Source of the DNA: Clostridia bacterium
GTDB taxonomy: Bacteria > Bacillota > Clostridia > Christensenellales > DTU072
Length of the DNA stretch: 64,000 nt
Reading direction: 5' to 3'
Assembly (NCBI GenBank): GCA_017476265.1
Contig: JAFVAC010000002.1
Location: forward strand, 2,344 to 66,343
The position numbers were made by a program, and so were the translations under genes. Within the stretch, counting starts at the first letter, position 1. The number at the start of each line of letters is the position of its first letter. The notes under the pieces were generated by a model that was not told where the DNA came from, ran no database searches, and worked only from the letters and a program-made list of their open reading frames with translations. Positions 2,132-64,000 of this stretch are shown piece after piece.

Positions 2132-3265
2132 ATGTTAAGTGCTTCTAAGTTTGAACAATACTTTTTCAACTTCAAAAGTACAACCACGACTGCAATATCG
2201 GTGATGCTGTGGATATTCTTCGCATTGTTGATATGTTTCGTCGTACTGTCTCTTACGATGAAAGACAAGAGCAAAGTGATCAACAAAGTGTTTGCCATCT
2301 TGGGGACTTTGTACGTCGCTACCGCTATTGTTTTGTTCGCCGTGCTGAAAGGCATAGAAAACAACGAAGACGGCGGCGTCAATGCTTTGATTTTGTACCC
2401 GATGATCACTCTTGCTATCGTTTTGATCGCATCGGCATTGATCGCGGTCTTTGTCCCCAATAAGATCGTCCGAATCCTATCTTATGCTCTGTCCGGCGGC
2501 GCATTGGTCGCGGTGATCGTGTGTCTTTCGGTCTACTATGCATCGGGAGAGGCGAGTGAATTTAACTGGATAGACCAAGAGAACGTAAACTCCGTAGCTT
2601 TGTGGATAACTTCGGTGGTCCTCATTTTAGTCATCGGAGGGCTTACTTTCCTCGATAGAAGAAAACTGAAGTTCGATACCAAGTCATTGACATACGCCGG
2701 GATCACCCTTGCGCTTGCGTTTGCTTTGTCGTACATTCGTATCATCAGAATGCCGATGGGGGGAGGGATCACTCTTGCGTCCCTGCTGCCGATCATGCTA
2801 TACTCTTATATGTTCGGGACGAAAAAGGGCGTGTTGGTCGGCGTGTTGTACGGTGTATTGCAAGCGATCCAGGATCCGTGGATATTGCATCCGGCACAGT
2901 TCTTACTGGACTATCCGGTGGCTTTTGCCGGAGTGGGACTCGTCGGATTGATGCGCGATCAAAAGCGTGAATGGGATCCGAAGTTGAGTTTTGCGGTAGG
3001 TGCGATTGTCGCCGCATTCGCGAGACTTTTGGCACACTTCTTATCCGGCGCATTCGCTTTCGGCGTTTATGCCGGCGATTGGAATATGACCTCGCCATAT
3101 TTGTATAGCATCGCGTATAATGCGGCTTACGTTCTGCCGGACGCTGCGCTTGCGATCATCGCCGGGATCCTTTTGATGCTCTCGAAGACCTTTACGGGAT
3201 TGGTCTTAAAAACGGAAGATAAGCCTATCGACAATACGGCAACAATATCGCAAGGAGAAGAATAA
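2132..3265 (+). CDS. thiT: thiamine transporter ThiT (ECF S-component-like) with about 180-aa N-terminal multi-TM extension
   Basis: The C-terminal half (about aa 185-350: LALAFALSYIRI..GGGITLASLLPIMLYSY..FLLDYPVAFAGVGL..LAHFLSG) resembles the ThiT/YuaJ family. The gene is under a TPP riboswitch. The N-terminal half has about five extra hydrophobic helices. Confidence 0.7.
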   Translation: MLSASKFEQYFFNFKSTTTTAISVMLWIFFALLICFVVLSLTMKDKSKVINKVFAILGTLYVATAIVLFAVLKGIENNEDGGVNALILYPMITLAIVLIASALIAVFVPNKIVRILSYALSGGALVAVIVCLSVYYASGEASEFNWIDQENVNSVALWITSVVLILVIGGLTFLDRRKLKFDTKSLTYAGITLALAFALSYIRIIRMPMGGGITLASLLPIMLYSYMFGTKKGVLVGVLYGVLQAIQDPWILHPAQFLLDYPVAFAGVGLVGLMRDQKREWDPKLSFAVGAIVAAFARLLAHFLSGAFAFGVYAGDWNMTSPYLYSIAYNAAYVLPDAALAIIAGILLMLSKTFTGLVLKTEDKPIDNTATISQGEE

Positions 3266-21067: not shown

Positions 21068-21144
21068 TGGGGTGTAGCGCAGTTTGGTAGCGCACGTGGT
21101 TTGGGACCATGGGGTCGGGAGTTCGAGTCTCTTCACCCCGACCA
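21068..21144 (+). tRNA. tRNA-Pro (UGG)
   Basis: Hand-folded cloverleaf. The anticodon loop is TTTGGGA and CCA is encoded. Position 1 is T opposite G72. Confidence 0.85.
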
Positions 21145-21164: not shown

Positions 21165-21238
21165 GGGCCTTTAGCTCAGTTGGTTAGAGCGGTCGGCTCA
21201 TAACCGATTGGTCCGCGGTTCAAGTCCGTGAAGGCCCA
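21165..21238 (+). tRNA. tRNA with CAU anticodon (elongator Met or lysidine-dependent Ile2; the body looks Ile2-like)
   Basis: Cloverleaf with anticodon loop CTCATAA. GGGCCTTTAGCTCAGTTGGTTAGAGC resembles Bacillus tRNA-Ile(CAU). No CCA is encoded. Confidence 0.8.
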
Positions 21239-21289
21239 GCAAGTTGCCTTATGGCCAAAGGAACGAATATTAAAAACTTAATATAATAC

Positions 21290-21822: not shown

Positions 21823-22128
21823 ATGAAAGTCAACGCAAAAATGAATAATGAGAACTTGTATCTTTACTTGTCCGGGGAGATAGACCAATCTGTTGCGGGA
21901 GATCTTCGTATTAAAATAGACGACTACTTGGAGTCAGTCAAAGTTAAGAACGTGATCCTTAACATGCAGGAATTGACCTTTATGGACAGTACGGGGGTAG
22001 GACTCATTTTAGGCAGATATAAAAAACTGAGACAAAAACATGTGGGAATGTTTATTGACAAACCCAACGAGCAAATAGACAAGGTCCTGAAAGTAAGCGG
22101 ACTGTATCGGATCATACCCAAACTATGA
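21823..22128 (+). CDS. spoIIAA: anti-sigma-F factor antagonist SpoIIAA (STAS domain)
   Basis: FMDSTGVGLILGRYK phosphorylation-site region, and operon context. Confidence 0.9.
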   Translation: MKVNAKMNNENLYLYLSGEIDQSVAGDLRIKIDDYLESVKVKNVILNMQELTFMDSTGVGLILGRYKKLRQKHVGMFIDKPNEQIDKVLKVSGLYRIIPKL

Positions 22129-22137
22129 GGTGAATAT

Positions 22138-22560
22138 ATGGAAAATCACATGAGCATACGAGTAAAAGCAATACCGGAGAACGAATCTTTGGCGCGTAGC
22201 ACGATAGCGGCATTTTGTCTGTCGAGCGACCCGACTGTGGACGCGGTCAACGACGTCCGCACGGCAGTATCCGAAGCGGTCACCAATAGCATTGTGCACG
22301 GATATGACGGTAAAGAGGGGGACGTCTTGATCGAGGCGCAACTGACAGGAGACGTTCTTGCATTGGAAATAGTCGATTACGGCGTAGGTATAGCCGACGT
22401 GGAAATGGCAATGGGCGACTTTTTTACCACAAAAGAGGAGGAAGAGAGAAGCGGACTTGGGTTTACGATCATGCGGACCTTTATGGACGAACTGTCGGTA
22501 GAAAGCAAGATCGGCGTAGGGACGACTGTCCGTATGAAAAAAAGGTTGCGCAATGCTTAG
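22138..22560 (+). CDS. spoIIAB: anti-sigma-F factor SpoIIAB (serine kinase)
   Basis: HATPase_c motifs (EAVTNSIVHGY, DYGVGI, GLGFTIM). Confidence 0.92.
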   Translation: MENHMSIRVKAIPENESLARSTIAAFCLSSDPTVDAVNDVRTAVSEAVTNSIVHGYDGKEGDVLIEAQLTGDVLALEIVDYGVGIADVEMAMGDFFTTKEEEERSGLGFTIMRTFMDELSVESKIGVGTTVRMKKRLRNA

Positions 22561-23266
22561 TCAGGAAGAGACTGCACAACTCATCGAAAGGGCGCAACAA
22601 AATGACGACGAAGCAAAGACGATCCTTTTGCAGAATAATTTGCCTTTGATCAAGAGTATCGTGCGACGGTATAAAAATAAGCAAACGGAGACCGATGACC
22701 TGATACAGCTCGGTACCCTTGGATTTATCAAAGCGATCAACAATTTTGATCTTACTTTCGGCGTCAAATTTTCGACGTATGCTGTTCCTATGATCGCAGG
22801 GGAGATCAAACGGTTTTTGAGAGATAACGGGGCGATCAAAGTCAGTCGTTCGATCAAGTCCCAACATCAGGAACTGAACGCTTTTGTAGAAAGATATCGA
22901 CAGGAGAAACAAAAAGACCCGACGATATCCGAGATCGCTGCGCATCTGAACGTCGATGAAACCGACGTGGTTTTTATTATGGATAGTGCGAGGTACCCGG
23001 TCAGCATTTATGCGGAGAGCGACGAAGACGGGTTGAGCCTGGTCGATAAAATAAGCTCGAAGGACGATCAGGACGATTATATTGAAAAAACCGTCTTGAG
23101 AGATATCATAGCCAAGTTCGATGAGCGCGACAAAAAAATTATATATTTGCGCTACTACCGCGATAAAACTCAAAGTGAAATAGCAAAAGTACTCGGTGTG
23201 TCTCAAGTCCAAGTGAGTCGACTGGAAGCGAAGATATTGGAAAGGATAAGAAAAGAGATGTCTTGA
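22553..23266 (+). CDS. sigF: RNA polymerase sporulation sigma factor SigF
   Basis: Sigma-70 regions 2-4 (DLIQLGTLGFIKAINNFD, TQSEIAKVLGVSQVQVSRLE), and its position downstream of spoIIAB. Confidence 0.9.
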   Translation: MLSQEETAQLIERAQQNDDEAKTILLQNNLPLIKSIVRRYKNKQTETDDLIQLGTLGFIKAINNFDLTFGVKFSTYAVPMIAGEIKRFLRDNGAIKVSRSIKSQHQELNAFVERYRQEKQKDPTISEIAAHLNVDETDVVFIMDSARYPVSIYAESDEDGLSLVDKISSKDDQDDYIEKTVLRDIIAKFDERDKKIIYLRYYRDKTQSEIAKVLGVSQVQVSRLEAKILERIRKEMS

Positions 23267-23274
23267 GACAAGGT

Positions 23275-23298
23275 AAAACACCCATATCGGGTGTTTTT
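23275..23298 (+). terminator. rho-independent terminator
   Basis: AAAACACCC-ATATC-GGGTGTTTTTAT. Confidence 0.65.
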
Positions 23299-23317
23299 AT
23301 TTAGGGAAAAAACCGAT

Positions 23318-23347
23318 GTATAAAAAAACAGATACGGGCGACAATAC
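23318..23347 (+). promoter_or_regulatory. candidate forespore (sigma-F/G type) promoter of spoVA operon
   Basis: GTATA, then spacer, then GGGCGACAATAC. This resembles the GTATA..GG..A.AATA forespore promoter pattern. Confidence 0.35.
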
Positions 23348-23426
23348 CTCGGTAGGGCGAATATGAGAAAAGAACATGAAGAATCGACGGAGATATTCAA
23401 TCCGAACGAGAACAGAGAGGTGAATT

Positions 23427-23876
23427 TTGAGGTTAGATAAAGAACAAAGTAAAGAATACCTCGCCGAGATCAGAAAAGATATGCCGAAAACAAAACATGT
23501 CAGGACTATGGTCCGGGCTTTTTTGACAGGCGGCATCATCTGTTGTATCGGGCAAGGGATCGGTGATGCGATAAAGGCGATTTTTCCTTCGATGCAAGAG
23601 GACGAGGTGGGCGGATTCGTAACTATGATGATGATCTTGTTGACCGCGATTCTTACCGGGATCGGGGTTTATGACAAAATCGGCGCATTCGGCGGGGCGG
23701 GGAGCATCGTCCCGATCACAGGATTTGCCAATTCGATCGTCAGTCCTGCGATAGAACACAAGCGGGAGGGGATTGTGCTGGGTTTGTGCGCCAATATGTT
23801 TTCCATAGCGGGTCCTGTGATCGTGTTCGGCATCTCCGCGTCCGTGTTGGTCGGGATCATATACTGTTTTATTTAG
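23427..23876 (+). CDS. spoVAC: stage V sporulation protein AC
   Basis: VRAFLTGGIICCIGQ and the TM pattern. TTG start with a GAGAGGTG SD. Confidence 0.88.
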   Translation: MRLDKEQSKEYLAEIRKDMPKTKHVRTMVRAFLTGGIICCIGQGIGDAIKAIFPSMQEDEVGGFVTMMMILLTAILTGIGVYDKIGAFGGAGSIVPITGFANSIVSPAIEHKREGIVLGLCANMFSIAGPVIVFGISASVLVGIIYCFI

Positions 23877-23884
23877 GAGGGTAG

Positions 23885-24883
23885 ATGGTAAGGACGGTTT
23901 TTTTTGACAGAGACGTTGCGATCACGCAGACTTCGTCAATCGCCGGACCCAAGGAGGGTGAGGGTCCGCTGAAAAAATACTATGACTATATCCTGAAAGA
24001 CGATATCATCGGACAAAAAAGTCACGAGCATGCGGAGATCATGATGCAGCTTCAATGCATCAAACAGCTCTTAAACAAGGCTCATCTATCGCAAAATGAC
24101 GTCGATTGCGTATTCGGGGGGGATCTTTTGGATGAGATCATAGGTTGCAACTTTGCTATGAGGGAGTTAGAAATACCCTTTATCGGTCTGTATAACGCCT
24201 GCGCGACTTTTGGAGAGGCGCTTATTCTCGGTGCGATTATGATACATTCCGATTATATGAGCAAAGTGATCACGACTACGACGAGTCACTATGCAACCGC
24301 GGAGAGGCAGTACCGTTTCCCGTTGGAACTCGGCTCGCAGAGGACTCCTCTGTCACAATGGACCGTGACGGGTGCCGGATGCAGTCTTTTGACGAAAAAG
24401 GAAGAGGTCGGTGTGAAAGTGACGAGCGGGACCATCGGTAAAGTCGTGGACTACGGCGTAAGCGACGCCAACGATATGGGGGCGGTCATGGCTCCCGCAG
24501 CATTGAATACGATCGTGTCGCACTTGTCGGACACCGGGAGGGACGAGACTTATTACGACCTGATCGTTACAGGAGATCTCGGACACGGCGGAAGCAGACT
24601 CTTGCAGATATTAGCTAAAAAAGAAGGATTGAACCTCGGCAAAAACTATTCCGACTGCGGTATTTTGATTTTTAACCGAGAGGGGCAAGACGTCGGTCAA
24701 GGCGGAAGCGGAGCGTGTTGCTCAAACCTTGTCTTCAATGCATATTTGTATAAAATGCTATCGCAAGGAACACTCAAAAAAATACTTTTTGTGCCGACGG
24801 GTGCGCTGTTAAGTAAAGTCTCTTCATTGCAGGGGGAAACTATCCCGGCAATCGCGCATGCGGTAGCGATCGAGGTGGTGTAA
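23885..24883 (+). CDS. spoVAD: stage V sporulation protein AD
   Basis: Thiolase-like fold sequence typical of SpoVAD, located between spoVAC and spoVAE. Confidence 0.88.
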   Translation: MVRTVFFDRDVAITQTSSIAGPKEGEGPLKKYYDYILKDDIIGQKSHEHAEIMMQLQCIKQLLNKAHLSQNDVDCVFGGDLLDEIIGCNFAMRELEIPFIGLYNACATFGEALILGAIMIHSDYMSKVITTTTSHYATAERQYRFPLELGSQRTPLSQWTVTGAGCSLLTKKEEVGVKVTSGTIGKVVDYGVSDANDMGAVMAPAALNTIVSHLSDTGRDETYYDLIVTGDLGHGGSRLLQILAKKEGLNLGKNYSDCGILIFNREGQDVGQGGSGACCSNLVFNAYLYKMLSQGTLKKILFVPTGALLSKVSSLQGETIPAIAHAVAIEVV

Positions 24884-25251
24884 TGGATATGTTTTTGACC
24901 TATCTGATCGTTTTTGCGATCGGAGGCGGAATCTGTATGGTGGGACAGGTGATCATCAATTTGACAAAGCTGACATCGGCGAGGATCCTTTTGATCTTCT
25001 TGCTCCTTGGTGTGCTTTTGGAGGCAATAGGCGTATTCGGATATATGAAGGACTTTGCCAAAGCGGGCGTGACTATTCCCATTATGGGGTTCGGGAGCAA
25101 TTTGGCAAAAGGGGCGATCGAAGGCGCAAGAGAGAGTGGACTATTCGGGGCAATAACAGGAGGAGTAAAAGCTGCGGCGGCAGGGCTAACCGGTGCGATA
25201 TTTATTGGATTTGTCGTGTCTTTAATCAGTAAACCGCATTCTAAATCCTGA
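24883..25251 (+). CDS. spoVAE: stage V sporulation protein AE (SpoVAEB)
   Basis: 122-aa membrane protein whose start overlaps the spoVAD stop (ATG/TAA junction). Confidence 0.85.
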   Translation: MDMFLTYLIVFAIGGGICMVGQVIINLTKLTSARILLIFLLLGVLLEAIGVFGYMKDFAKAGVTIPIMGFGSNLAKGAIEGARESGLFGAITGGVKAAAAGLTGAIFIGFVVSLISKPHSKS

Positions 25252-25308
25252 GATGGGGAACGATCTAGAGACTTGACAAAAAAGGGCAAACGGTAGTAGA
25301 ATACCGAT

Positions 25309-26328
25309 ATGAGAAAAATTTCATATAAGGGTGACGTTTGCATCATCAAGTCACAATCCAATTTGTTTTATCTGACCGGGTACGATACGGCGGACGCAAT
25401 AATAGCGCTGGTGGGAGGCAAGGCGTATTATTTTACCGACGCAAGGTACTTTGAAGAAGTCGATTATTTGAAGACCGATTTCGTAATTGAGAGCGTAGAA
25501 AAGTACGGCGCATTTTTACGTGAAAGCGGATTCCGATCCGCCGCTATCGAAAAGTCTATGCCTGCATATGACTATGAAGAGTTAAAAAACGCCGGAATAA
25601 CCGATTTTTCCTATATTGACGAAGAGATGACCTCTTTGCGTATGATAAAGAGCGCGGAAGAGATCGAAGTGATGCAGAAGGCGCAAGACGTGTCCGATCG
25701 CGCCTTTTTGGAGATACTTCCGAAAATCCACGAAGGTATGACCGAAAGAGAGCTCGCCGGGCAGCTGGAAGGTCTGCTCTTTGCCTGTGGAGGAGATGCT
25801 TTGGCGTTTACGTCCATTGTCGCCTTCGGAGAAAACACGTCAAAACCGCATGCTCATCGTACTGAAAAGAAGTTGGGAAAGGGGATGCCCGTGACGATGG
25901 ACTTCGGTGCGAAGTACGCGGGGTATTGCTCGGATATGACGAGGACCGTCTTCTTCGGCGAACCGTCGAATGAGATCAAGAAGACCTATATGATGGTCAA
26001 AGAGGCACAAAGCATGGCTATCGCCGGTGTTCACCCCGGCATGACGGGAAGAGAGTGCGACGAGATCGCCCGCGGCTATTTCAGGCGCAACGGCGTAGAT
26101 AAGTACTTTTTGCACTCTTTGGGGCATAGCCTTGGAATAGATATCCACGAAAGTCCCAACTTTTCGCCGAGATGTGAGTCTGTCATTCGCACGGGAATGA
26201 CCTTGAGCGTAGAACCCGGTTTGTATTTTGATAAAAAATTCGGCATCAGAATAGAAGATGTAATTTATTTTGCGGAAACAGGCGTAAGAAACTTGACAAA
26301 AAGTGCCAAAGATATGATAATATTATAG
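25309..26328 (+). CDS. Xaa-Pro aminopeptidase, M24 family
   Basis: Metal ligands in [24 protein letters not shown] and SVEPG..RIED contexts. It sits in the usual position upstream of efp. Confidence 0.88.
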
Positions 26329-26359
26329 AAATAATTTTACATTTTCGGAGGACGAATAT

Positions 26360-26923
26360 ATGGCATACATTATGGCGGGTGATTTCCGCAAAGGTATTAC
26401 TTTCGAACTGGATGGGACCGTTCAGGTCATCGTTGATTTCCAACACGTCAAACCCGGTAAGGGCGCGGCTTTTGTGAGAGCGAAGATCAGAAACGTAATG
26501 ACCGGCGGCGTTATTGAACGTACCTTTAACCCCAGTGAAAAGTATGAACTTGCTCATATTGAGCGCAAAAAGATGCAATATAGCTACAATGACGGCGATT
26601 TGTATTACTTCATGGACACCGAGACCTACGATATGGTCCCGCTCAACAAGGACATCGTCGCCGACGCGTTGCGCTTCATTAAAGAAGAAGATATGTGTGA
26701 CATCGCTTTTTACAAAGGGAGCGCTTTCTCTTGCGAACCGCAGAATTTCGTCGAGTTGAAAGTCGTCGACGCAGAGCCCGGGATCCCCGGTGCAACCGCT
26801 CAGCCCGGATCCAAGTCCGCTACGCTTGAGACCGGATACGTCATCCAAGTGCCTTTGTTTGTCAACGCCGGCGAGACCATCCGAGTGGATACGAGAGACG
26901 GTTCTTATATGAGCCGCGTATAA
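26360..26923 (+). CDS. efp: elongation factor P
   Basis: [19 protein letters not shown] motif; 187 aa. Confidence 0.95.
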
Positions 26924-26952
26924 TCGACATTTTATTTAAGTACTAAAATCAA

Positions 26953-26986
26953 AACGCCTCGGATAGAATATTCCGAGGTGTTTTGT
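26953..26986 (+). terminator. terminator-like hairpin after efp
   Basis: CGCCTCGGA-loop-TCCGAGGTGTTTTGTT. Confidence 0.5.
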
Positions 26987-26987
26987 T

Positions 26988-27776
26988 ATGGAAAACCTGT
27001 TGGATAAAGAATTGTTCAGAGAAGTCTCTTCTTTAAGGAAAGACGTCTGTGAGATACGTTTGCGCATTGGTCAAAATACGCAAGTCCGTACAAAAAGTGA
27101 AAAATTTTTCTTACAATACCGAGCGACAAGAGAGAAGATGAGCCAGATCATCAGACGGGCGACTGATGACGCGTTGTATGCCTATGAAGATCAGATCAGC
27201 GCTGGATATATCGGATATAAAAACGGTATTCGTATAGGGATCGCGGGAGATTGCAAATGGAACGGAGAAAAGGTCGTCGTACGAGAAGTGTACGCTCTTT
27301 GCGTCAGAATCCCTCAGGAAATCATCGGGTGCGCGTCGAGGCTCGCGGAATCCGACTTTGAAAATACGATCATTGTTTCTGAGCCAGGTGCCGGCAAGAC
27401 GACCCTATTGCGTGACTATATACGACTTCTTTCGATGAGATACGACGTACTCGCTATTGATGAGAGGTATGAACTGTTTGGCGAAGGGATCACGATGCGG
27501 ACAGGACCTTGTTGTGACGTAATACAAGGCGTCCCTAAAGAAAAAGTATACGAGATGTCGATACGAACGATGTCGCCGCAAATTGTTGCGTGCGACGAAC
27601 TTTTTGGGGCAAAAGATCTGTCCGCGGTACGGAAATTGGTCTCCTCCGGTATTAAAGTGTTGGCTACAATCCATGGAAAAAAATTAGATGAATGCTATAA
27701 AAGAATTTTTCAAAGAAAAGTCTACTTGTCAGACGATCCCCAAATAGGTACGATAGATCGCGTGGAGGGGATGTGA
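26988..27776 (+). CDS. spoIIIAA: stage III sporulation protein AA (ATPase)
   Basis: Walker A SEPGAGKTTLLRD, IDERYEL, and operon context. Confidence 0.85.
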   Translation: MENLLDKELFREVSSLRKDVCEIRLRIGQNTQVRTKSEKFFLQYRATREKMSQIIRRATDDALYAYEDQISAGYIGYKNGIRIGIAGDCKWNGEKVVVREVYALCVRIPQEIIGCASRLAESDFENTIIVSEPGAGKTTLLRDYIRLLSMRYDVLAIDERYELFGEGITMRTGPCCDVIQGVPKEKVYEMSIRTMSPQIVACDELFGAKDLSAVRKLVSSGIKVLATIHGKKLDECYKRIFQRKVYLSDDPQIGTIDRVEGM

Positions 27777-28216
27777 AATATTTAGTCGGGGCGATCCTCT
27801 TTGTATTGTCGGTTGTTGTCGGCAAGCTGATGAATAAAAGCTATAAGGACAAGATCCGGTTTTTGAACGAATACAGAGAATTTTTGAATCGCGTAAGTGG
27901 TGAAGCAGGCATCTTTAAAAGGAAAATGTCGGATATAGAGGAGCGTTTTTGTCAAGAGCGGTCGGGCAAGTTCGAGGATTTTCTGAAAACTTATCGTCAA
28001 AAAGGCGCTAAAACAGAAGAGGAAAAAATAGTCTTCGATTTTCTATCAGAGATAAAGGAAGTGAACGCAAAATCGCAAGATGAATTTATAAAATACTCGA
28101 TAGGATTGTGCGAAAAGATGTTATCCGACAGAGAAGAGGCACAAAAAACGAACGGCACTTTGTCGGAAAGGTTGTGTCCCTTGGTCGGGGCAGTCATGTT
28201 TTTATTGGTTTTGTGA
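27773..28216 (+). CDS. spoIIIAB: stage III sporulation protein AB
   Basis: Position and size in the spoIIIA operon, with terminal TM segments. Confidence 0.8.
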   Translation: MKYLVGAILFVLSVVVGKLMNKSYKDKIRFLNEYREFLNRVSGEAGIFKRKMSDIEERFCQERSGKFEDFLKTYRQKGAKTEEEKIVFDFLSEIKEVNAKSQDEFIKYSIGLCEKMLSDREEAQKTNGTLSERLCPLVGAVMFLLVL

Positions 28217-28222
28217 GGGGAG

Positions 28223-28420
28223 ATGGGCATAGACGTAATTTTCAAAATCGCCGGGATCGGGATCGTGACGGCGGTTATCAATAATATTTTGGAAAAAAGT
28301 GACAAAAAAGAGATCGCTACTCTTGTTACGCTTGCGGCGTTGGTGATCGTCCTGAGTCTTGTCGTCAATATGCTCGGAGACTTTTTCGGTACGCTGAAAG
28401 CGATGTTTAATCTCTATTGA
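28223..28420 (+). CDS. spoIIIAC: stage III sporulation protein AC
   Basis: 65-aa two-TM protein (FKIAGIGIVTAV). Confidence 0.85.
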   Translation: MGIDVIFKIAGIGIVTAVINNILEKSDKKEIATLVTLAALVIVLSLVVNMLGDFFGTLKAMFNLY

Positions 28421-28421
28421 A

Positions 28422-28802
28422 ATGCTCCTAAAAGTGATCGGTGTGGCTTTCGTGACAGTCGTATCGTATGGCGTCGTCAAGAATGTCAAACCGGATCTGT
28501 CCGTTTTTTTGCCGATGGCGGCAGGTGCAATTATACTGATCCTGTTGTCCGATGGGATCATCCGGTCGATTGATTCTTTTCGGACTATTATTGAAAAAAG
28601 CGGAGTTGATGAGCGCGCATACGGAGCGGTGCTGAAAATCGTCGGTATCGGATACATTACTGAGTTTAGTGCAAATTTATGTGAGGACGCCGGTTGTTCC
28701 GCTCTGGCAAAAAAGATCGAACTTGCAGGGAAAATCACCGTGCTCCTGACAGCAATGCCCATTGTGACGGGCGTAATCGACGTAATTGGCGACTTGATGT
28801 GA
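28422..28802 (+). CDS. spoIIIAD: stage III sporulation protein AD
   Basis: 126-aa membrane protein (LKIVGIGYITEF..LAGK). Confidence 0.85.
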   Translation: MLLKVIGVAFVTVVSYGVVKNVKPDLSVFLPMAAGAIILILLSDGIIRSIDSFRTIIEKSGVDERAYGAVLKIVGIGYITEFSANLCEDAGCSALAKKIELAGKITVLLTAMPIVTGVIDVIGDLM

Positions 28803-28807
28803 TCGTT

Positions 28808-29983
28808 ATGAAACGTATATTGACAATATTGACGATCGGTGTCTTTTTATTTGTTTTCCTAATCGGCGTGCAGACAGGCGATAGGGCTTTTGCCGACGAC
28901 CTAGGAGAAGCGGTAGAAGAGACGATGGACGGAGTTGATTCAAGCGCTTTTGACGAGTTGATGGCGCTGTTGCGAGAATACGATCAACAAGGTTTTTTCA
29001 CTACGTCAAGACAATTCGTCGAAGATATATTAAGTGGTAAAAACGACTTCGACACGTCCTATTTTCTGTCGATGGCAAACGATGTCTTTTTAGGAGAAGC
29101 TAAAGTAGTTTTGCCGCAACTTGCTATTATCGTAGTAGTTTGTTTGATCTATGGCGTTCTCAAAGGCTTGACAGATGGATTTATAAGGACCGACGTAAAC
29201 AAGGTCGTCTACGTCATCTGCTACTGTATCGTCCTCGCAGTCATTGCCAATCTGGTTGCCCGATCGATCAAAGAGGCGACAAGCACGTTTATATTGATGG
29301 AAAAGATATCCGAAGGTTGTTTTCCCGTACTTGTGACTTTAGTTGCGGCACTTGGCGGATCGGCTTCGGCGGCGGTATTTCAGCCGTCGGTTCTTATTTT
29401 CGGAAACGTCCTCCTGAGACTATTGACGACTGTTGTTACTCCTCTGTTTTTAGCGTCTTTTGTTTTCGGTTTGATAGGAAATCTTAGCGATCAACTGAAA
29501 CTCGGTCGTCTTTCTTCGGCAATTCGTTCGGGTACGACGCGTATTGTCGGGTTGGTATTCGGTATTTTTTCCACCGTTCTTGTCGCAGAGGGGATCACCG
29601 GCGCAAGTGTGGACGGATTGGCGGTGCGAGGGGCAAAATTCGCACTATCAAGCTACGTCCCGGTCGTCGGGGGCTATTTGAAGGACGGGTTTGACGTCGT
29701 TCTTGCCGGTTGTCTTGCCGTGAAGAACGCGCTTGGGCTCTGTGCCGTCATAATTCTACTTGTATCTGTAATTGTCCCTGTCATAAGACTGCTTCTGCTC
29801 AGTATTTGTATGAAACTGACTTCGGGAATACTGGAACCTGTGACAGACGGAAAGTTCTGTTCTGCCTTAACTTGTGCGGGGGATAGCCTTAATATCCTTG
29901 TAGTGGCTGTCGTTAGCGCGTCTTTTGCCGGGTTATTATTTTTGATGACCGTTCTGTTTGTCATGAATCCGGGTGTTTTATGA
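28808..29983 (+). CDS. spoIIIAE: stage III sporulation protein AE
   Basis: Signal peptide MKRILTILTIG followed by a polytopic domain. ATG 28808 is preferred because the longer ORF start at 28694 lies inside spoIIIAD. Confidence 0.85.
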   Translation: MKRILTILTIGVFLFVFLIGVQTGDRAFADDLGEAVEETMDGVDSSAFDELMALLREYDQQGFFTTSRQFVEDILSGKNDFDTSYFLSMANDVFLGEAKVVLPQLAIIVVVCLIYGVLKGLTDGFIRTDVNKVVYVICYCIVLAVIANLVARSIKEATSTFILMEKISEGCFPVLVTLVAALGGSASAAVFQPSVLIFGNVLLRLLTTVVTPLFLASFVFGLIGNLSDQLKLGRLSSAIRSGTTRIVGLVFGIFSTVLVAEGITGASVDGLAVRGAKFALSSYVPVVGGYLKDGFDVVLAGCLAVKNALGLCAVIILLVSVIVPVIRLLLLSICMKLTSGILEPVTDGKFCSALTCAGDSLNILVVAVVSASFAGLLFLMTVLFVMNPGVL

Positions 29984-30504
29984 AACAATGGATTATGGGT
30001 GTTGTTTGCGTGGCACTATTGTCCATTCTGACGGAAGTCCTTTTGTCGGAAGGCAAAATGAAAAAGTATATCGGGGGATTTGTTCGACTGGCTTTGGTGT
30101 TTGCCATCATATCCCCGGTCATCGGCTATTATACCCACGGTGAGGTGACGATTGACGCGTTTGAAGTATCAACGGACGCTATTGTCGATTCTACCTATGT
30201 ACAGTCTATGACAAGAAGAAGATTCGATCTGGCGGAAAGGACTATAGAAAAAGAACTTAGTACTGAAAATAGAGAGGCTCATGTCAGAATCGATTTATAT
30301 TTTGATGGTACTGATACGATCGTATACTTGGTTGAAGTCAGAATTGATAATATCGGCATAAACGAAAACATGGAGAATACAATATCTACTGAAGAGGTCA
30401 AGCGGACCGTATCAAACCATGTGAACGTCCGAGAGGAGAATATAATCGTCTATGGACTCGATCAAAGCAAAACTGAAGATCCTGATCGAAAAGATCAAGA
30501 ATAA
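29980..30504 (+). CDS. spoIIIAF: stage III sporulation protein AF
   Basis: Two N-terminal TM segments and operon position. Confidence 0.82.
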   Translation: MKQWIMGVVCVALLSILTEVLLSEGKMKKYIGGFVRLALVFAIISPVIGYYTHGEVTIDAFEVSTDAIVDSTYVQSMTRRRFDLAERTIEKELSTENREAHVRIDLYFDGTDTIVYLVEVRIDNIGINENMENTISTEEVKRTVSNHVNVREENIIVYGLDQSKTEDPDRKDQE

Positions 30505-31024
30505 TCGTAAGGCGCAACTCTATCTTGCGATCGGTGTGGTGGCTATCATAATAGGGATATTCCTTTTGCAAAGCGGGATCTTCTCGACTAAGAGTAAGTC
30601 AGATACTTCTTCAACGGTCGTAATAAATGATCAGGACGAGACAGACGCGATCGAGAAACTGGAACAGAAGCTGTCCGATATTCTTTCGGATATGGCGGGT
30701 GTCGGTAAAGCGAAGGTAGTCATAACCGTGACCGGTACAACCGAGAAAATAACGGCAAATACGACGACAACGGGGTCAACCAATACGCAAAATCCCAACG
30801 GAGGGTCAACGACGACGATCAATACTACGACTTCTCCGATCGTCGTTTCGACCGGCGGCAAGTCGGAACCATACGTCGTCAAAGAAGTTATGCCGGAGAT
30901 AGTCGGCGTCCTTGTCGTAGCAAAAGGCGCCGAAAACAGCGTGATTAGACTATCGATTATGCGAGCCGTTGAGACCGCTCTTAACGTACCCGCTAACAAG
31001 GTAGAAATATACGCTATGAAATGA
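30452..31024 (+). CDS. spoIIIAG: stage III sporulation protein AG
   Basis: N-terminal TM segment, a low-complexity T/N-rich linker, and a C-terminal ring-building-motif-like domain (VVKEVMPEIVGVLVVAKGA). Confidence 0.82.
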   Translation: MDSIKAKLKILIEKIKNNRKAQLYLAIGVVAIIIGIFLLQSGIFSTKSKSDTSSTVVINDQDETDAIEKLEQKLSDILSDMAGVGKAKVVITVTGTTEKITANTTTTGSTNTQNPNGGSTTTINTTTSPIVVSTGGKSEPYVVKEVMPEIVGVLVVAKGAENSVIRLSIMRAVETALNVPANKVEIYAMK

Positions 31025-31059
31025 AAACAAATAAAACATATATATATGGAGGCTGTTTT

Positions 31060-31575
31060 ATGAAAGGTACCAATACCAAAACAAAGACCGGAAAAGTGAA
31101 CAAGAAAAAGATCATCGTTCTTGTTTCACTGGTAGCACTGCTTGTCGCAACGGGATGTCTGAACTACTTCCTAACGACGAGAAATGCGAAAACTACGGTT
31201 GCCAGTCAGTCCAACGATGCCGTGACGCCAACCTTCTTTGCGACATACAGGACCGATCGGGAGGCGACACGAGCACAAGAGATGTTGTATCTGGAAGATA
31301 TAATCTCTTCGACCGAAGCGGATGAAAAGACCGTAGCCGACGCGCAGACGAAGAAGCTTTCTTTAGTCGGTATGATGGAGACGGAGTTATCCCTGGAAGG
31401 TCTTATCAAGTCAAAAGGTTTCGACGACTGTGTAGTGACGATCAGCACAGACAATGTGAACGTGGTGGTCAAAGACGCAGAGCTGAGTCTCGACGAAGCG
31501 TCGCAGATCCTGAATATCATTACGTCTGAGACCGATTACAAAGCGTCGAATGTAATAATCATTCCGTACGTCTAA
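31060..31575 (+). CDS. spoIIIAH: stage III sporulation protein AH
   Basis: TM anchor followed by a YscJ/FliF-like domain. ATG 31060 has a GGAGG SD. Confidence 0.8.
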   Translation: MKGTNTKTKTGKVNKKKIIVLVSLVALLVATGCLNYFLTTRNAKTTVASQSNDAVTPTFFATYRTDREATRAQEMLYLEDIISSTEADEKTVADAQTKKLSLVGMMETELSLEGLIKSKGFDDCVVTISTDNVNVVVKDAELSLDEASQILNIITSETDYKASNVIIIPYV

Positions 31576-37843: not shown

Positions 37844-38965
37844 ATGCAGCCCGGGATTGGTATCTACATTCATGTTCCGTTTTGTGAGGCTAAATGCAGG
37901 TATTGCAGTTTTTATTCTTTACCCATTCACTTAACCGAAGAACTTGTTGAAAAATATGTCAACGAAGTAATTTGGGAGTTGATCGCGGCGTCGAGAGTCT
38001 ACGCAGATAAGACTGTTTCGACAGTCTATATCGGCGGAGGAACGCCAAGCGTATTGAATCTTAAACAATTGTCTAAAATTGTGAATACCGTATATAGGTA
38101 TTATCACGTTTATCTATCGGAATTTACGATTGAAGTCAATCCGAGTTCATCCAAAAACATAACAGAATACGCGAAGCTGGGAATTAACAGAATCAGCGTC
38201 GGAGTACAAAGTACAGACGACGGCATTCTTAAAAAATTAGGGCGCATTCATACGGTAAAAGAGGCGCTTCAATGTCTGGAAGCAGCGGCTTCAAGCTACG
38301 ATAAAATCAGTGGCGACATTATTCTGGGGGTAGAAGACGAGCAAAATGTTTTACGGGATGTGAAAACGATTTTGCCTTACGTAAATCATATTTCGACGTA
38401 TATCTTAACTTTAGAGAAAGGGACGCCTCTTTATTCTGATGTGATTACAAAAAAAATAAGTGTCGCATCGGAAGACGCCGTTGTCAAACAATACAACGAT
38501 GTCTATGACTTTTGTGTGAACAATCGCTTATATCGGTACGAAGTCAGTAATTTTGCTTATTTGGGCGCGGAGTCAAAGCATAATCTTAATTATTGGTCAT
38601 TAGGAGAATATATCGGGTTCGGACCGGGGGCGCATTCCTATATGAATGGATTACGGTTTTTTAACGAATCGAACCTTCAGGGGTATTTAGCAGGCAACCA
38701 TTTTGCCAATCACAGACAAAAGGAAGAAAGACCTTTTTCTATCGAAGAGGACAGAAAAGAATTTATTATGCTTGCCATGCGTACGGCTCATGGTATTGAC
38801 GCTACTGAATATGGGAGAAGGTTTGGAGATGATTTTTGGGTCCGCTATAAAAAAACGATTGACAAATTGAAAGAATATATGATCGTCACGGAAAGAAGAA
38901 TCAGGATAAAACCGCAGTTTTTTTTGGTGCAAAATGCAATTATCGGTGAATTTTTGGATGAATAA
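37844..38965 (+). CDS. hemW: radical SAM heme chaperone HemW (HemN-like)
   Basis: YIHVPFCEAKCRYCSF, and its conserved position after lepA. Confidence 0.9.
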   Translation: MQPGIGIYIHVPFCEAKCRYCSFYSLPIHLTEELVEKYVNEVIWELIAASRVYADKTVSTVYIGGGTPSVLNLKQLSKIVNTVYRYYHVYLSEFTIEVNPSSSKNITEYAKLGINRISVGVQSTDDGILKKLGRIHTVKEALQCLEAAASSYDKISGDIILGVEDEQNVLRDVKTILPYVNHISTYILTLEKGTPLYSDVITKKISVASEDAVVKQYNDVYDFCVNNRLYRYEVSNFAYLGAESKHNLNYWSLGEYIGFGPGAHSYMNGLRFFNESNLQGYLAGNHFANHRQKEERPFSIEEDRKEFIMLAMRTAHGIDATEYGRRFGDDFWVRYKKTIDKLKEYMIVTERRIRIKPQFFLVQNAIIGEFLDE

Positions 38966-41648: not shown

Positions 41649-42299
41649 TTAAATGATCACACATTCATTCAAATATTGTAAATAACGGTTTTCAATCTCC
41701 GTAACAGATTGGTACTTGTCAGACAGAAAACCTTTGATAATCTCGTCAAATACTTTAATATAATCGCTGATCGCTTTGGCGATTTCCTCGGTGTTATATT
41801 CCTTGCCGCTTGGGATAGAGAAAGTTCGGACAAATTTGCCGTTATCGAAAGAATAAGTTACGGGATTATTGCGAAAATAATTACCTAAATATATCTGTTC
41901 CAATTTAGTCCACAGATTAAAGAAATCTTTCAGCCGCAAAAGCAATTCCGAGGATTGGGTTCGGAAAATGATTTTCAGCTCACCGATCGTTTGCTCCGTG
42001 GTTCGATACAGTTCAACTTCATATCGGATCGTTGGTCGATATTTGAAGTCCAGCGAGCTTTTGACGCTCATCGTTCGATCGTGTGGTTCGATAAACGACA
42101 CAAACGTGTTTGTCCCCAACAAATTCTCTATATAATTAAAAATATTATTGATCCTTTTTTCCGGTGTAACCAGCGATACATACTCTGCCAAAATTTGATT
42201 GACCATATTACTTCGGTTTGTATTTTGCTGGGCGGCGAGCATATCGATTTCTCTTACCACGTCGTCCATCAATATTAGACTGTACATGCTTTTTTTCAT
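41649..42299 (-). CDS. ribbon-helix-helix (CopG/Arc-like) domain protein with about 170-aa uncharacterised C-terminal domain
   Basis: The N-terminus [36 protein letters not shown] fits the strand-helix-helix pattern (..SRSelI..Al.ey). The stop is 16 nt upstream of the clpB ATG. Confidence 0.6.
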
Positions 42300-42449: not shown

Positions 42450-42812
42450 ATGATGTCAAGGGAAATTACTTTACAGACGAATATGGACAAGATTTATTGT
42501 GGTGAGCTCAACGCGTATTACGGCAGTGTACTAAACGATCATCAAAGAGAAGTTCTGCGTTTGTATTATGACTGTGATATGAGTCTGGCGGAGATAGCCG
42601 AATTATATGGAACCAGTCGTCAAGCCGTGCGAGAGGGGATAGCCAGATCCACGGAAAAGCTTCGTCAATATGAAGAAAAACTCGGCTTGATAAAGAAAGT
42701 CAAATCATTATCGGGGCGTTTGGAACACATCATTAAAGTCATAGATAATGAGGAGAAAGCGGAGATCAAGTCAAAACTTAGCGCGCTGTTGAAAGATATA
42801 AAGGAGATATAA
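42450..42812 (+). CDS. ylxM: YlxM/UPF0122 helix-turn-helix protein
   Basis: YYDCDMSLAEIAELYGTSRQAV, and its conserved position upstream of ffh. The start codon is uncertain (42450, 42453 or 42483). Confidence 0.8.
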   Translation: MMSREITLQTNMDKIYCGELNAYYGSVLNDHQREVLRLYYDCDMSLAEIAELYGTSRQAVREGIARSTEKLRQYEEKLGLIKKVKSLSGRLEHIIKVIDNEEKAEIKSKLSALLKDIKEI

Positions 42813-43750
42813 TGGCATTATTCGGGACACTGAGTGAAAAGATCAATCACGCCTTTTCAAAATTAAGGAATAAGGGTGCTTTGACCGAACTCGAAGTCAA
42901 AAATGCGATGAGAGAAGTCAGGATCGCGTTGCTGGAAGCGGACGTCAATTTTGCCGTAGTCAAAAATTTCATCAACACAGTCAGTGAAAGGGCCTGCGGG
43001 GAAGACATTCTGAAAGGGTTGGAGTCTTCGCAACAGGTTATTAAAATAGTGAATGAAGAGTTGGTTCGGCTTATGGGATCTACCCATGCGAAATTGGAGA
43101 TTGCCGATCGCCCGCCAACTATTATTATGATGTGTGGATTGCAAGGAGCAGGGAAAACCACAATGTGTGGGAAACTTGCTCTTCTGCTGAAAAAACAAGG
43201 AAAGAAACCACTTTTGGTCGCAGGCGATATCTATCGTCCCGCCGCTATCAAACAGCTCCAAGTGGTCGGGAAGAGCGTTGATGTCCCGGTGTTTGAAATG
43301 GGACAAATCTCTCCGATCAAGATTGCTAAAGAGGCGGAAGAATACGCTTTAAAAAACGGTTTTGACACCATTATTCTCGATACTGCCGGTCGTTTACAGA
43401 TCGACGAACAGTTGATGCAAGAACTTTCGGAGATCAAAGAGAAGGTCAAGCCTACGGAGATTTTGCTGGTGGTCGACGCTATGCTTGGGCAAGAGAGTGT
43501 AAACGTTGCAGGGACATTTAATCAAAAACTGGATATAACGGGCGTCATTTTAACCAAGCTGGACGGCGACACCCGAGGCGGCGCCGCACTTTCGATCAAG
43601 GCAATATTGAATAAACCGATTAAGTTTTGCGGTATTGGCGAAAAAATGACGGACATAGAGCCTTTTTATCCGGACAGGATGGCGTCCCGCATACTCGGGA
43701 TGGGGGACGTACTGACCTTGATTGAAAAGGCAGAGCAAGCGATTAGCTAA
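42812..43750 (+). CDS. ffh: signal recognition particle protein Ffh, N and G domains, ending at an in-frame TAA
   Basis: GLQGAGKTT, DTAGR, TKLDGD and ILGMGDVLTLIEKA. The ORF stops at TAA 43748-43750, where full-length Ffh continues. Confidence 0.85.
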   Translation: MALFGTLSEKINHAFSKLRNKGALTELEVKNAMREVRIALLEADVNFAVVKNFINTVSERACGEDILKGLESSQQVIKIVNEELVRLMGSTHAKLEIADRPPTIIMMCGLQGAGKTTMCGKLALLLKKQGKKPLLVAGDIYRPAAIKQLQVVGKSVDVPVFEMGQISPIKIAKEAEEYALKNGFDTIILDTAGRLQIDEQLMQELSEIKEKVKPTEILLVVDAMLGQESVNVAGTFNQKLDITGVILTKLDGDTRGGAALSIKAILNKPIKFCGIGEKMTDIEPFYPDRMASRILGMGDVLTLIEKAEQAIS

Positions 43751-43777
43751 GAAGAATCGCAAAAACTTGCTCAAAAA

Positions 43778-44134
43778 ATGAAAAATAATACCTTTGACTT
43801 GGATGATTATCTATCACAATTGCAATCGGTGAAAAAGATGGGAAATCTAACCGATATGATCGGGATGATTCCCGGGATAGGCAACAAGATGAAAGGAATG
43901 GATCTGACCGTCGATGAGAAACAACTCGATAGGACTAAGGCGATCATACAATCAATGACGCCAAGGGAGAGAGCCCATCCGGAGATTCTGAATGCAAGCA
44001 GAAGAAAAAGAATTGCCGCAGGAAGCGGAACGACGGTGCAGGATGTCAACAGACTATTGAATCAATTCAATCAAGCAAAGGATCTTATGAAAAAAATGAG
44101 TTCCGGCAAAAGGAAATTACCATTCGGTTTTTAA
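43778..44134 (+). CDS. ffh: Ffh M domain, in the same frame as 42812-43750
   Basis: [32 protein letters not shown] and [10 protein letters not shown]. The codons between the TAA and this ATG (EESQKLAQK) also look like Ffh linker sequence. Confidence 0.8.
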
Positions 44135-44175: not shown

Positions 44176-44427
44176 ATGGCAGTAAAACTCAGATTAACCA
44201 GAATGGGTGCGAAAAAAACACCTTTCTATCGTATCGTTGCGACGGATTCTCGCAAAGCAAGAGACGGACAGTATATCGAACAGATCGGATACTATGATCC
44301 CACCAAAGATCCCGCCGACGTCAAGATCGATGCTGAAATCGCGAAGAAATGGCTCGCTTGCGGAGCGCAACCGACTGATACCGTTCGTGATTTGTTTGTC
44401 AAATACGGTGTAATTGAAAAGAAGTAA
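44176..44427 (+). CDS. rpsP: 30S ribosomal protein S16
   Basis: [21 protein letters not shown]. Confidence 0.96.
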
Positions 44428-48202: not shown

Positions 48203-48222
48203 TCTCAAAGATACCAAGAATG

Positions 48223-48260
48223 ACAACCGTTCCGCTTTTACGGAATGGTTGTATTCGTTT
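48223..48260 (+). terminator. rho-independent terminator
   Basis: ACAACCGTTCCG-CTTTTA-CGGAATGGTTGT followed by a T-rich run. Confidence 0.65.
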
Positions 48261-48309
48261 TATAGTATATTTTTATCAAACCGATGAGTTTCGCAATAAC
48301 GAGGTTGAA

Positions 48310-50448
48310 ATGAAGAAAAAAATTATTTTAGCTGTAGTTGTTTTGGCAGTATCCGTTTGCGTCTTGTGCGCTTGCACGACGGACGCAAATATGCTGAAAA
48401 CAGGAGAGAACGACTCGTTTTTATACTCCACCTTAGCTTCTTTACAGAATGACTGGGATCTTTCGACTGAAGATTCTTACTCGATCAGTAATGTTTTTTC
48501 TTTAGAAGATAATGCACTGGTCATAAATACCGCTTCCTCAGGATGGGCTAAAGCGGAACAAGAAGTGGAGTTAAAAGCCAATAGTTTTTATTTGGTTGAG
48601 TATCATTACAGTGCGACTACATTTACTTCTTATGGGGATAAAGGGTATGACGGATTGTATATTTCTTTCCGGGAAGACGATGATTTTAACTCGGGGGATA
48701 ACGAAGTTCATCATCGTTCTGCCAATAGTGGGACGGTCGGTAAATTTTACTTCCGCTCGAATTCTTCCGGAATGGCTACTTTTACAATTAACGTCGGTTC
48801 GGAAGAATATCCCGTTAAAGTCAGTGAGGTAAAAATATCCGATATCAAACTGATCAAAGTTACCGCAGCGCAAGTCGAGTCCGACAATGCTTCATACTTT
48901 GTTTATGAGAGCGATTACTATGGTGTGCCCGGACCGCAAAATGTCGTGTGGGTCGTTCTTGGCGGCATCGCTGTTTTACTCTTGGGGTACATTGCATATG
49001 TGCTCTTCCGCAGAAACCTTGTGAAGAATCAAGAATATAAAAGCAAGTTTTTGCAAAAAATCAGAGACAGCAAATATTTGGGTATTTTTTTGGTTGGTGC
49101 GGTGGCGATTATAATTCGTTTGATGATTGACCTTTTGACCACATTCTTAGCAGGTGCAAAAACGTACTCTTCTTTAGGGTATACTGTGGAAGGATTTGCT
49201 TCTCAAGCACTGTTTATCGGTAGATATGGAACTGTATATTTGAGCGAGTCTTTGGCTAGATTTTGTACGGATAACGGTTTTACCTACATGGCTGTCGGCA
49301 GCAATCCCATACTCTTGTATTTGCTCGGTTCGATTGGTCTTATCAGCAGAATATTTGATCCGGGTAGTCAGTACCTTGCCGCGACTTTCCTTGTGAAACT
49401 CCTGGCGTCGATAGCCGATATAGGTACGGCGGTTCTTATTTTTGCACTTATCAAAAAGCATGCCGGGAACGTCGGTGCTTCGATCATTTCGTTGCTTTAT
49501 GTTGCGTTGCCTACCGTATTTGGATTAAGTGCGCTTTGGGGCTTTGCCGAGAGCATTACGGTATTCTTTATCGTGCTAAGCGTTTACTTTATGCTCAAGA
49601 ACAATTATTATGGCGTGTCGATTTCCTACTTTGTAGCGTTCTTGTGTTCTTATTCGGCATTGATTTTCGCTCCGATCGTTATCTTCTACTCGATCCAACA
49701 GGCGATCAATCAGCCCAAACTGCGAATCGCTGCACCGGTTGCGTTTGTAACGGGCTTCATATTGTTCTATTTGTTGAACTTGCCGTTCGATATTCGTTCG
49801 GTAAGCAGTGGAAGTCCCTTTGTTTGCGTGACGAATTATTGGAATGCTATCTTCCATAATTTACTGTATACTCGGAATGCATTTAATTTCCAGGCACTAT
49901 TGGGCAACAACTTCGGAGAAGTCACCAATGAGTCGTTGATCGTTACTATCGTTTTCGTTGTATTTATGTTGGCTCTGGTCGGCTTTGGGTACTTCAAAAA
50001 TAAGAACAGAATGAACCTTCTGTTGTTGGGGACGGCCTTCATCAATATGTACTACATGTTTGCCAACAACATGACTCCGGAAGTGATGGCAATGAGTTTG
50101 GCTTTGATGTTGATCTATGCGATCATGGCTAAAGACAGAAGGATTTATTTCGCCTTTGTATGCTATGCCGCTATCAGTTTCGTCAATCTCTCAATCGGCG
50201 AGCTTCTGTATGCGTATACTACTACCGGTATTTATAGAATTGCATATGATACCGCAACGATTTACGTTTTCAGCGCACTTGCCTTGTTAGTGACTCTGTT
50301 GTATATCTATTTTACTTATGAAGCTGTCGTAAGTAAAAATGTAAAGAAGATACAACCGATGCCCATGAACTATCTGAACTGGTGCAAGAGCGTCTTGCTC
50401 AAAGTTCGTAGATCTTACTACAAACTGCGCAATAGGAGAGCCAAATAA
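48310..50448 (+). CDS. large polytopic membrane protein with lipoprotein-type signal and beta-rich N-terminal ectodomain (possible GT-C type glycosyltransferase)
   Basis: MKKKIILAVVVLAVSVCVLCAC lipobox, an ectodomain of about 200 aa, then at least 12 hydrophobic helices. ATG 48310 was chosen because the longer ORF start at 48220 overlaps the rplS terminator. Confidence 0.55.
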   Translation: MKKKIILAVVVLAVSVCVLCACTTDANMLKTGENDSFLYSTLASLQNDWDLSTEDSYSISNVFSLEDNALVINTASSGWAKAEQEVELKANSFYLVEYHYSATTFTSYGDKGYDGLYISFREDDDFNSGDNEVHHRSANSGTVGKFYFRSNSSGMATFTINVGSEEYPVKVSEVKISDIKLIKVTAAQVESDNASYFVYESDYYGVPGPQNVVWVVLGGIAVLLLGYIAYVLFRRNLVKNQEYKSKFLQKIRDSKYLGIFLVGAVAIIIRLMIDLLTTFLAGAKTYSSLGYTVEGFASQALFIGRYGTVYLSESLARFCTDNGFTYMAVGSNPILLYLLGSIGLISRIFDPGSQYLAATFLVKLLASIADIGTAVLIFALIKKHAGNVGASIISLLYVALPTVFGLSALWGFAESITVFFIVLSVYFMLKNNYYGVSISYFVAFLCSYSALIFAPIVIFYSIQQAINQPKLRIAAPVAFVTGFILFYLLNLPFDIRSVSSGSPFVCVTNYWNAIFHNLLYTRNAFNFQALLGNNFGEVTNESLIVTIVFVVFMLALVGFGYFKNKNRMNLLLLGTAFINMYYMFANNMTPEVMAMSLALMLIYAIMAKDRRIYFAFVCYAAISFVNLSIGELLYAYTTTGIYRIAYDTATIYVFSALALLVTLLYIYFTYEAVVSKNVKKIQPMPMNYLNWCKSVLLKVRRSYYKLRNRRAK

Positions 50449-63934: not shown

Positions 63935-64000
63935 ATTATTTCAATATAAAAAGGATGGCAAGTTAGTGCTGTTCCATTAGGGATTTTATAAAAAAATAAA

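Follow-up and report, generated by a model that had tools for sequence, protein, structure and literature searches.

A private in-frame TAA in ffh on a Clostridia metagenome contig, probably a consensus error

The gene for the SRP protein Ffh is interrupted by a single in-frame TAA in a 64,000-nt stretch of DNA (the window) that comes from an uncultured Christensenellales-like Clostridia bacterium, probably of the ruminant gut. Does this stop codon belong to the living organism, as part of a recoded, split or freshly inactivated gene, or did it arise during sequencing and assembly? On the forward strand, the entire ffh reading frame covers positions 42812–44134 (440 codons plus the final stop). 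As the first-pass annotation had described, this frame is occupied by two ORFs. The first (42812–43750) encodes the N and G GTPase domains (312 aa), has the C-terminus ..GMGDVLTLIEKAEQAIS and ends at the premature TAA (43748–43750), which is codon 313; the second (43778–44134) encodes the M domain (118 aa, SRP_SPB). The nine codons between the TAA and the next ATG (43751–43777) read EESQKLAQK and are ordinary coding sequence of the GM linker.

The genes around ffh come in the standard order of the usual Firmicutes operon, ylxM–ffh–rpsP–KH–rimM–trmD: the full series is clpB, a 216-aa ORF, ylxM/srpM, ffh, rpsP, the gene of a KH-domain protein, rimM and trmD, all features cited here by position being on the forward strand. 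The ylxM/srpM gene (42450–42812; UPF0122, 120 aa) was taken from the ORF list and is supported by the Pfam PF04297 match of the identical gene in another contig, L001. It lies directly 5' of ffh, its stop codon overlapping the ffh start codon. On the other side, the next operon gene is rpsP (44176–44427, from the ORF list), which encodes ribosomal protein S16 and whose exact product was used as the query for fetching further contigs.

The two ORFs are one ffh gene cut in the GM linker and not chance ORFs, because their matches to TIGR00959, the NCBIfam Ffh equivalog model (428 positions, curated cutoff of 473.2 bits), are colinear and in one frame. Indeed, the NG ORF aligns with positions 2–310 of the model (459.9 bits, E = 7.5e-138) and the M-domain ORF with positions 322–428 (135.6 bits, E = 2.1e-39), both fragments scoring under the cutoff with the TAA separating them. 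Consistently, a product identical to that of the 312-aa ORF has recorded matches to Pfam SRP54_N and SRP54, and the 118-aa counterpart in L001, one residue away from the M-domain product of the window, has one to PF02978. The locus therefore has what characterizes a bacterial ffh (TIGR00959; SRP54_N, SRP54 and SRP_SPB), namely the same domain order, 440 codons, the Firmicutes operon and an acidic/lysine-rich GM linker, and departs from it by the internal TAA, which leaves only fragments below the cutoff.

Direct evidence on the origin of the stop came from a near-identical contig, k141_647242 (ENA ERZ27256838, 108.7 kb), which was compared as four overlapping pieces spanning the whole window and matches it at 63,990 of the 64,000 positions (99.98%), with no indels. 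In this contig, the first base of codon 313 (position 43748) is a G instead of the T found in the window, so that the codon reads GAA (Glu). Nine nucleotides 3' of this change stands a second private G-to-T difference, at position 43757: codon 316 (43757–43759) is GCG (Ala) in k141_647242 and TCG (Ser) in the window. The product of k141_647242 is an intact 440-aa Ffh (P0001), which spans TIGR00959 positions 2–428 with 618.4 bits, above the cutoff. P0001 is the best match to the protein obtained by reading through the TAA, has the sequence ..AISEEEAQKLAQKM.. at the linker, and differs from the read-through protein only at codons 313 and 316. The earlier impression that EESQKLAQK is coding is thus borne out, this segment being two G-to-T steps away from the intact allele.

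The stop is also absent from more distant relatives. The best 120 homologues of the read-through protein (74–100% identity) are all full length, with 437–441 aa. An alignment of ffh with its relatives had been proposed in the first-pass annotation, which held that a sense codon at this position would point to a base-call error, and a sense codon is what this alignment returned: of the species representatives of 80 related Clostridia and Christensenellales, 64 have GAA at the homologous codon, 9 have GAG, 4 have CAA, and one each has CAG, ATG and GAT; none has a stop. Likewise, position 316 is Ala in 71 of the 80, Met in 8 and Leu in one, and never Ser. At the position of EESQKLAQK, the linker of close relatives reads EEEAQKLA(Q/K)K or EEDALKLAKK, the nearest named relative being the rumen MAG RUG11213 (86% identity). 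Pattern scans for either allele (GCGATTAGCKAAGAAGAAKCGCAAAAACTTGC) gave no match in GTDB species genomes or JGI metagenome contigs, and a second protein search, centred on the linker, returned only fragments of at most 82% identity and no new near-identical alleles. The TAA is a derived, private and non-conserved G-to-T substitution, and the ancestral state is GAA.

The absence of the stop from the near-identical contig and from all the relatives leaves programmed readthrough, an altered genetic code and a conserved split of the gene without support. The first-pass annotation had listed four explanations for the TAA; an error and a recent private nonsense mutation remain, while readthrough and a genuinely split Ffh do not stand up to the comparison. 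In the first of the two discarded readings, full-length Ffh would be made by programmed readthrough of the TAA or by its reassignment through a suppressor tRNA or an altered code. The locus does resemble known cases of recoding in that coding potential runs on past the in-frame stop. It is unlike them in that the stop is not conserved, no stimulatory structure accompanies it, TAA is an ordinary stop here and a sense allele is found in a near-clonal contig. The RNA fold of 43730–43850 is not significant (z = -1.58, with 17 of 200 shuffles folding at least as well), and the Rfam search gave no match in the region and no recoding element. No stop codon is used more often in the window than TAA, which ends 39 of the 74 non-overlapping ORFs; the anticodons of the six tRNAs of the window are all ordinary, with no suppressor tRNA within these 64 kb, and no other gene of the window is interrupted, as judged against the gene calls of k141_647242. 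The initial view that TAA is used normally and that a reassigned code is unlikely is therefore confirmed, and the GAA allele already refutes readthrough and recoding for practical purposes; we give them next to no weight.

The second discarded reading is a functional split Ffh, in which the 312-aa NG protein and the 118-aa M protein, the latter made by termination–reinitiation at ATG 43778, act jointly with the SRP RNA. Both ORFs are intact and in frame, the ATG lies only 28 nt 3' of the premature stop, and the M domain alone binds 4.5S RNA, nascent chains and ribosomes (PMC2921155). Nevertheless, the M-domain part has no start signal of its own. As noted in the first pass, no Shine-Dalgarno sequence precedes ATG 43778: the 20 nt upstream (CGCAAAAACTTGCTCAAAAA) have an anti-SD energy of +1.9 kcal/mol, that is, no pairing, compared with -8.8 kcal/mol at the ffh start and -9.5 kcal/mol at that of rpsP. 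Pairing as weak as this is seen in 2% of the long ORFs of the window, the other 98% pairing more strongly. In addition, given the established mechanism of SRP, we know of no route other than the covalent GM linker that would bring NG to the SRP RNA and the cargo, and a limited literature search found no report of NG and M complementing each other in trans. Finally, the split is absent from the 99.98%-identical genome, from the best 120 homologues and from the 80 species, which argues that it has not been selected for. We regard a functional split as very improbable.

We then turn to the assemblies that carry or border the site. The exact 312-aa NG product is encoded on one other contig of the public collection, XIEF21-1_SAMN15829995_METAG-scaffold_2065 (ENA ERZ28654170, 49.8 kb; hereafter scaffold_2065), which starts at about window position 21090. 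Over positions 32812–64000, four substitutions separate scaffold_2065 from the window (38806, 41249, 43862 and 63803). The two have in common the TAA, the TCG, 59447C and 63936T, and k141_647242 differs from them at all four sites; a Logan contig of run SRR12529321 has 59447A, like k141_647242. The window is a third assembly, since its own 118-aa M-domain product is absent from the public collection. A further contig of 1.8 kb (L004), from the sister sample SAMN15829990, starts at window position 43773, 16 nt 3' of the second G-to-T site, and has private changes at 43920 and 45496. Its starting point is compatible with poor coverage or a break of the assembly graph at this very spot. In a cluster look-up, the truncated NG protein, the intact P0001 and the M-domain variant of scaffold_2065 each came out as singletons.

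The differences between these sequences have an unusual spectrum. When the window, k141_647242, scaffold_2065 and L004 are pooled, there are 15 substitutions and no indels, and all 15 substitutions are transversions. Divergence among near-clonal bacteria is normally rich in transitions, and 15 transversions with no transition are thus unlike natural near-clonal divergence. Note that the first-pass annotation had seen neither this bias, nor the second private G-to-T change, nor the presence of the TAA in another assembly. The substitutions are also unevenly distributed: five fall within 17 nt (21239–21255) and two within 10 nt in the ffh linker, the remaining eight being singletons (38806, 41249, 43862, 43920, 45496, 59447, 63803 and 63936). 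The nine coding SNVs comprise one nonsense, six missense and two synonymous changes. The ffh gene accounts for four of them: besides the stop and A316S, these are G351W, seen only in scaffold_2065, and K370I, seen only in L004. None of the 69–80 relatives compared has the derived residues Ser316, Trp351 or Ile370 in Ffh, or Ser118 in TrmD.

The five-base cluster begins directly after tRNA-Met, where the window reads GGCCCA-GCA and k141_647242 reads GGCCCA-CCA. Because an encoded CCA end is present both in k141_647242 and in the other five tRNAs of the window, the window version is once again the damaged one. An inversion was considered as the cause of the 21239–21255 cluster and rejected, the segment not being a reverse complement.

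Taken together, the transversion-only spectrum, the tight clustering, the damage to conserved features and the contig starts or breaks located beside two clusters favour errors of the consensus. We consider that base-call errors that entered a short-read metagenome consensus at a thinly covered spot are the likeliest origin of the TAA, with a probability of about 0.6, and that the living organism most likely lacks the TAA. The miscalls would come from a few poor reads and would have been fixed into the consensus at thin spots; the reads behind the window would have been assembled a second time to give scaffold_2065, and the organism itself would make a normal 440-aa Ffh. The source of the miscalls would be the two-colour Illumina chemistry of the NovaSeq. 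The contig label XIEF21-1_SAMN1582999x most probably stands for the study by Xie et al. 2021, who sequenced 370 samples of the ruminant gastrointestinal tract (PCR-free NovaSeq, 2x150) and assembled them singly with MEGAHIT and IDBA-UD as well as by co-assembly (PMC8199421). In the two-channel chemistry of this instrument, A gives a signal in both colours, C and T each give one, and G gives none (PMC10415152). With such a dye scheme, a miscall in a single channel should always produce a transversion (G–T, A–C, G–C or A–T), as a transition would need both channels to fail.

Part of the evidence nevertheless goes against an artefact and suits a real, very recent nonsense mutation, present in a clonal sub-lineage or a subpopulation of the sampled animal(s), a reading that we hold to be possible but doubtful. 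The haplotype combining TAA and TCG is found again in scaffold_2065, in spite of the four other positions at which this contig differs from the window. Should scaffold_2065 derive from other reads than the window, the bases common to both could not be put down to random error; the two TAA-bearing assemblies may, however, not be independent. The alleles shared at 59447 and 63936, in opposition to k141_647242, look like the mark of two real sub-lineages, the more so as the k141_647242 allele at 59447 is seen a second time, in the SRR12529321 contig. Moreover, contigs of 50–64 kb normally need a coverage of about 10x or more, at which errors present in a single read rarely win the consensus.

The spectrum itself could be mimicked by a mutator lineage. 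G:C-to-T:A and A:T-to-C:G changes are the two classes that result from defects in the repair of 8-oxoG, and 8 of the 10 non-clustered SNVs belong to them; an all-transversion spectrum would then reflect a mutY- or mutT-type background, and GAA to TAA is a typical G:C-to-T:A route to a nonsense codon. On the other hand, the A-to-T, G–C and T–A changes are not of the 8-oxoG types, and it would be very unusual for natural microdiversity in bacteria to yield 15 substitutions without a single transition. The clustered changes also destroy the CCA end of a tRNA, and the survival of a living lineage with this damage is hard to picture. A similar balance applies to ffh. Four of the 10 SNVs, including those responsible for G351W and K370I, are located in this gene, which represents 1.3 kb out of 64 kb, as would fit a relaxation of selection after a knockout, but this enrichment rests on four sites.

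If the mutation is real, the allele may be a fresh loss-of-function or hypomorphic one, perhaps deleterious and transient. Alternatively, it may be tolerated, either because trace readthrough or reinitiation supplies some product or because the cells can do without SRP under some conditions. Termination is more efficient at UAA than at the other stop codons, and the M-domain ATG is without a Shine-Dalgarno sequence. As for dispensability, Streptococcus mutans is reported to survive the loss of SRP (PMC8546722), and its viable ffh, ftsY and scRNA mutants would provide a parallel, that of a Firmicutes lineage with a truncated Ffh. The parallel would hold only if the TAA is real, and ffh, together with ftsY, is essential in Clostridioides difficile, also a member of the class Clostridia (PMC12548448). 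We think it unlikely that a viable Christensenellales lineage of the gut has a genuine TAA fixed at this site, with SRP being dispensable or NG and M being made separately by termination–reinitiation. In that event, the surplus of missense changes private to single contigs (G351W and K370I) would mark ffh as a gene that is decaying or under selection, and a member of the Clostridia would offer a natural case of a knocked-out or split ffh, relevant to the question of SRP dispensability.

A template switch (quasi-palindrome correction) was also considered as the origin of both G-to-T changes. Position 43757T completes a 6-bp inverted repeat (GCGATT/AATCGC), but a random G-to-T change does equally well in 4.8% of trials; 43748T creates TTAGCTAA, a match equalled in 34% of trials. 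The effect is not significant, and the two changes have different symmetry centres, so this candidate was rejected.

Whatever the origin of the TAA, the species to which the window belongs clearly has a normal Ffh, and there is no sign of recoding. If the preferred reading, a consensus error, is right, the locus joins the MAG genes that are broken by errors of consensus or assembly. It resembles them by its private lesion, by the existence of near-identical genomes devoid of it and by the other unlikely substitutions that accompany it, and is unlike them in that the lesion is a clean base substitution present in two assemblies, whereas indels, gaps and contig ends play no part in it. When an essential gene of a MAG contains a single in-frame stop, comparison with near-identical assemblies should come first, and differences that are clustered and all transversions can serve as a flag for consensus errors of two-colour Illumina data. 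Other split ffh calls exist on long metagenome contigs, and the possibility of recurrent splits of this gene was discarded after examination of two of them (L091 and L092). Both are plain assembly artefacts, at a different site from the TAA of the window: the first is due to a scaffold gap of 10 N, and the second to a deletion between direct GTTAACGTT repeats.

When the near-identical assemblies available for this organism (four or five) are compared, their substitutions belong to a single class: all 15 are transversions, and indels are absent. Ten of these changes are isolated (positions 38806, 41249, 43748, 43757, 43862, 43920, 45496, 59447, 63803 and 63936), eight of them being G-T or A-C changes, and the others form a cluster at 21239-21255. 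Such an all-transversion spectrum fits single-channel miscalls in two-colour Illumina chemistry; alternatively, it could be the product of an 8-oxoG-type mutator. Only one variant, at 59447, has each of its alleles present in two assemblies: codon 558 of dnaK reads CAC (His) in the window and in scaffold_2065, the contig that carries the same ffh TAA, and CAA (Gln) in k141_647242, the ENA contig with an intact ffh, and in a Logan contig of SRR12529321.

The ffh gene (1.3 kb) holds 4 of the 10 isolated variants, an enrichment that rests on small numbers. Besides the two G-to-T sites of the linker (43748 and 43757), these are private missense changes in the M domain, namely Gly351Trp in scaffold_2065 (43862), within the ..MIGMIPG.. 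segment, and Lys370Ile (43920) in L004, a 1.8-kb contig from sample SAMN15829990. The first nucleotide of L004 corresponds to position 43773 of the window, i.e. 16 nt downstream from the second G-to-T site, which suggests that in this other sample coverage lapsed, or the assembly graph broke, at the ffh linker.

The cluster at 21239-21255 comprises five substitutions in 17 nt between the window and k141_647242, which are otherwise near-identical (window/k141_647242: G/C, T/A, G/T, G/C and C/A). It lies directly 3' of a tRNA-Met gene (21165-21238), whose encoded 3' end is CCA in k141_647242 versus GCA in the window; the five remaining tRNAs of the same cluster all encode the CCA end. An inversion was ruled out as the origin of these differences, the segment not being inverted, and the substitutions have the look of errors clustered locally when the window was assembled.

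Split ffh calls are a recurrent artefact of assemblies. The gene is interrupted inside the G domain in two other metagenome contigs, at 2380-2560 in both L091 and L092: the split results from a 10-N scaffold gap in L091 and, in L092, from a deletion that removed about 15 codons between direct repeats (GTTAACGTT).

Elsewhere in the window, a TPP riboswitch (2006-2094; Rfam RF00059, 59 bits) precedes a 377-aa ThiT/YuaJ-type thiamine transporter ORF (2132-3265). The organism appears to be a spore-former, as judged from the sporulation genes of window region 21823-31575 (spoIIAA/spoIIAB/sigF-like, spoVAC/D/E and the spoIIIAA-AH operon), which were called with Pfam on the identical contig. Pfam gave no match for two conserved ORFs: one on the plus strand after rplS (48220-50448; protein of 712-742 aa) and one of 216 aa on the minus strand between clpB and ylxM (41649-42299). 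The relative represented by L091 has, at the corresponding position between clpB and ylxM, a 210-aa ORF that also lacks a Pfam match.
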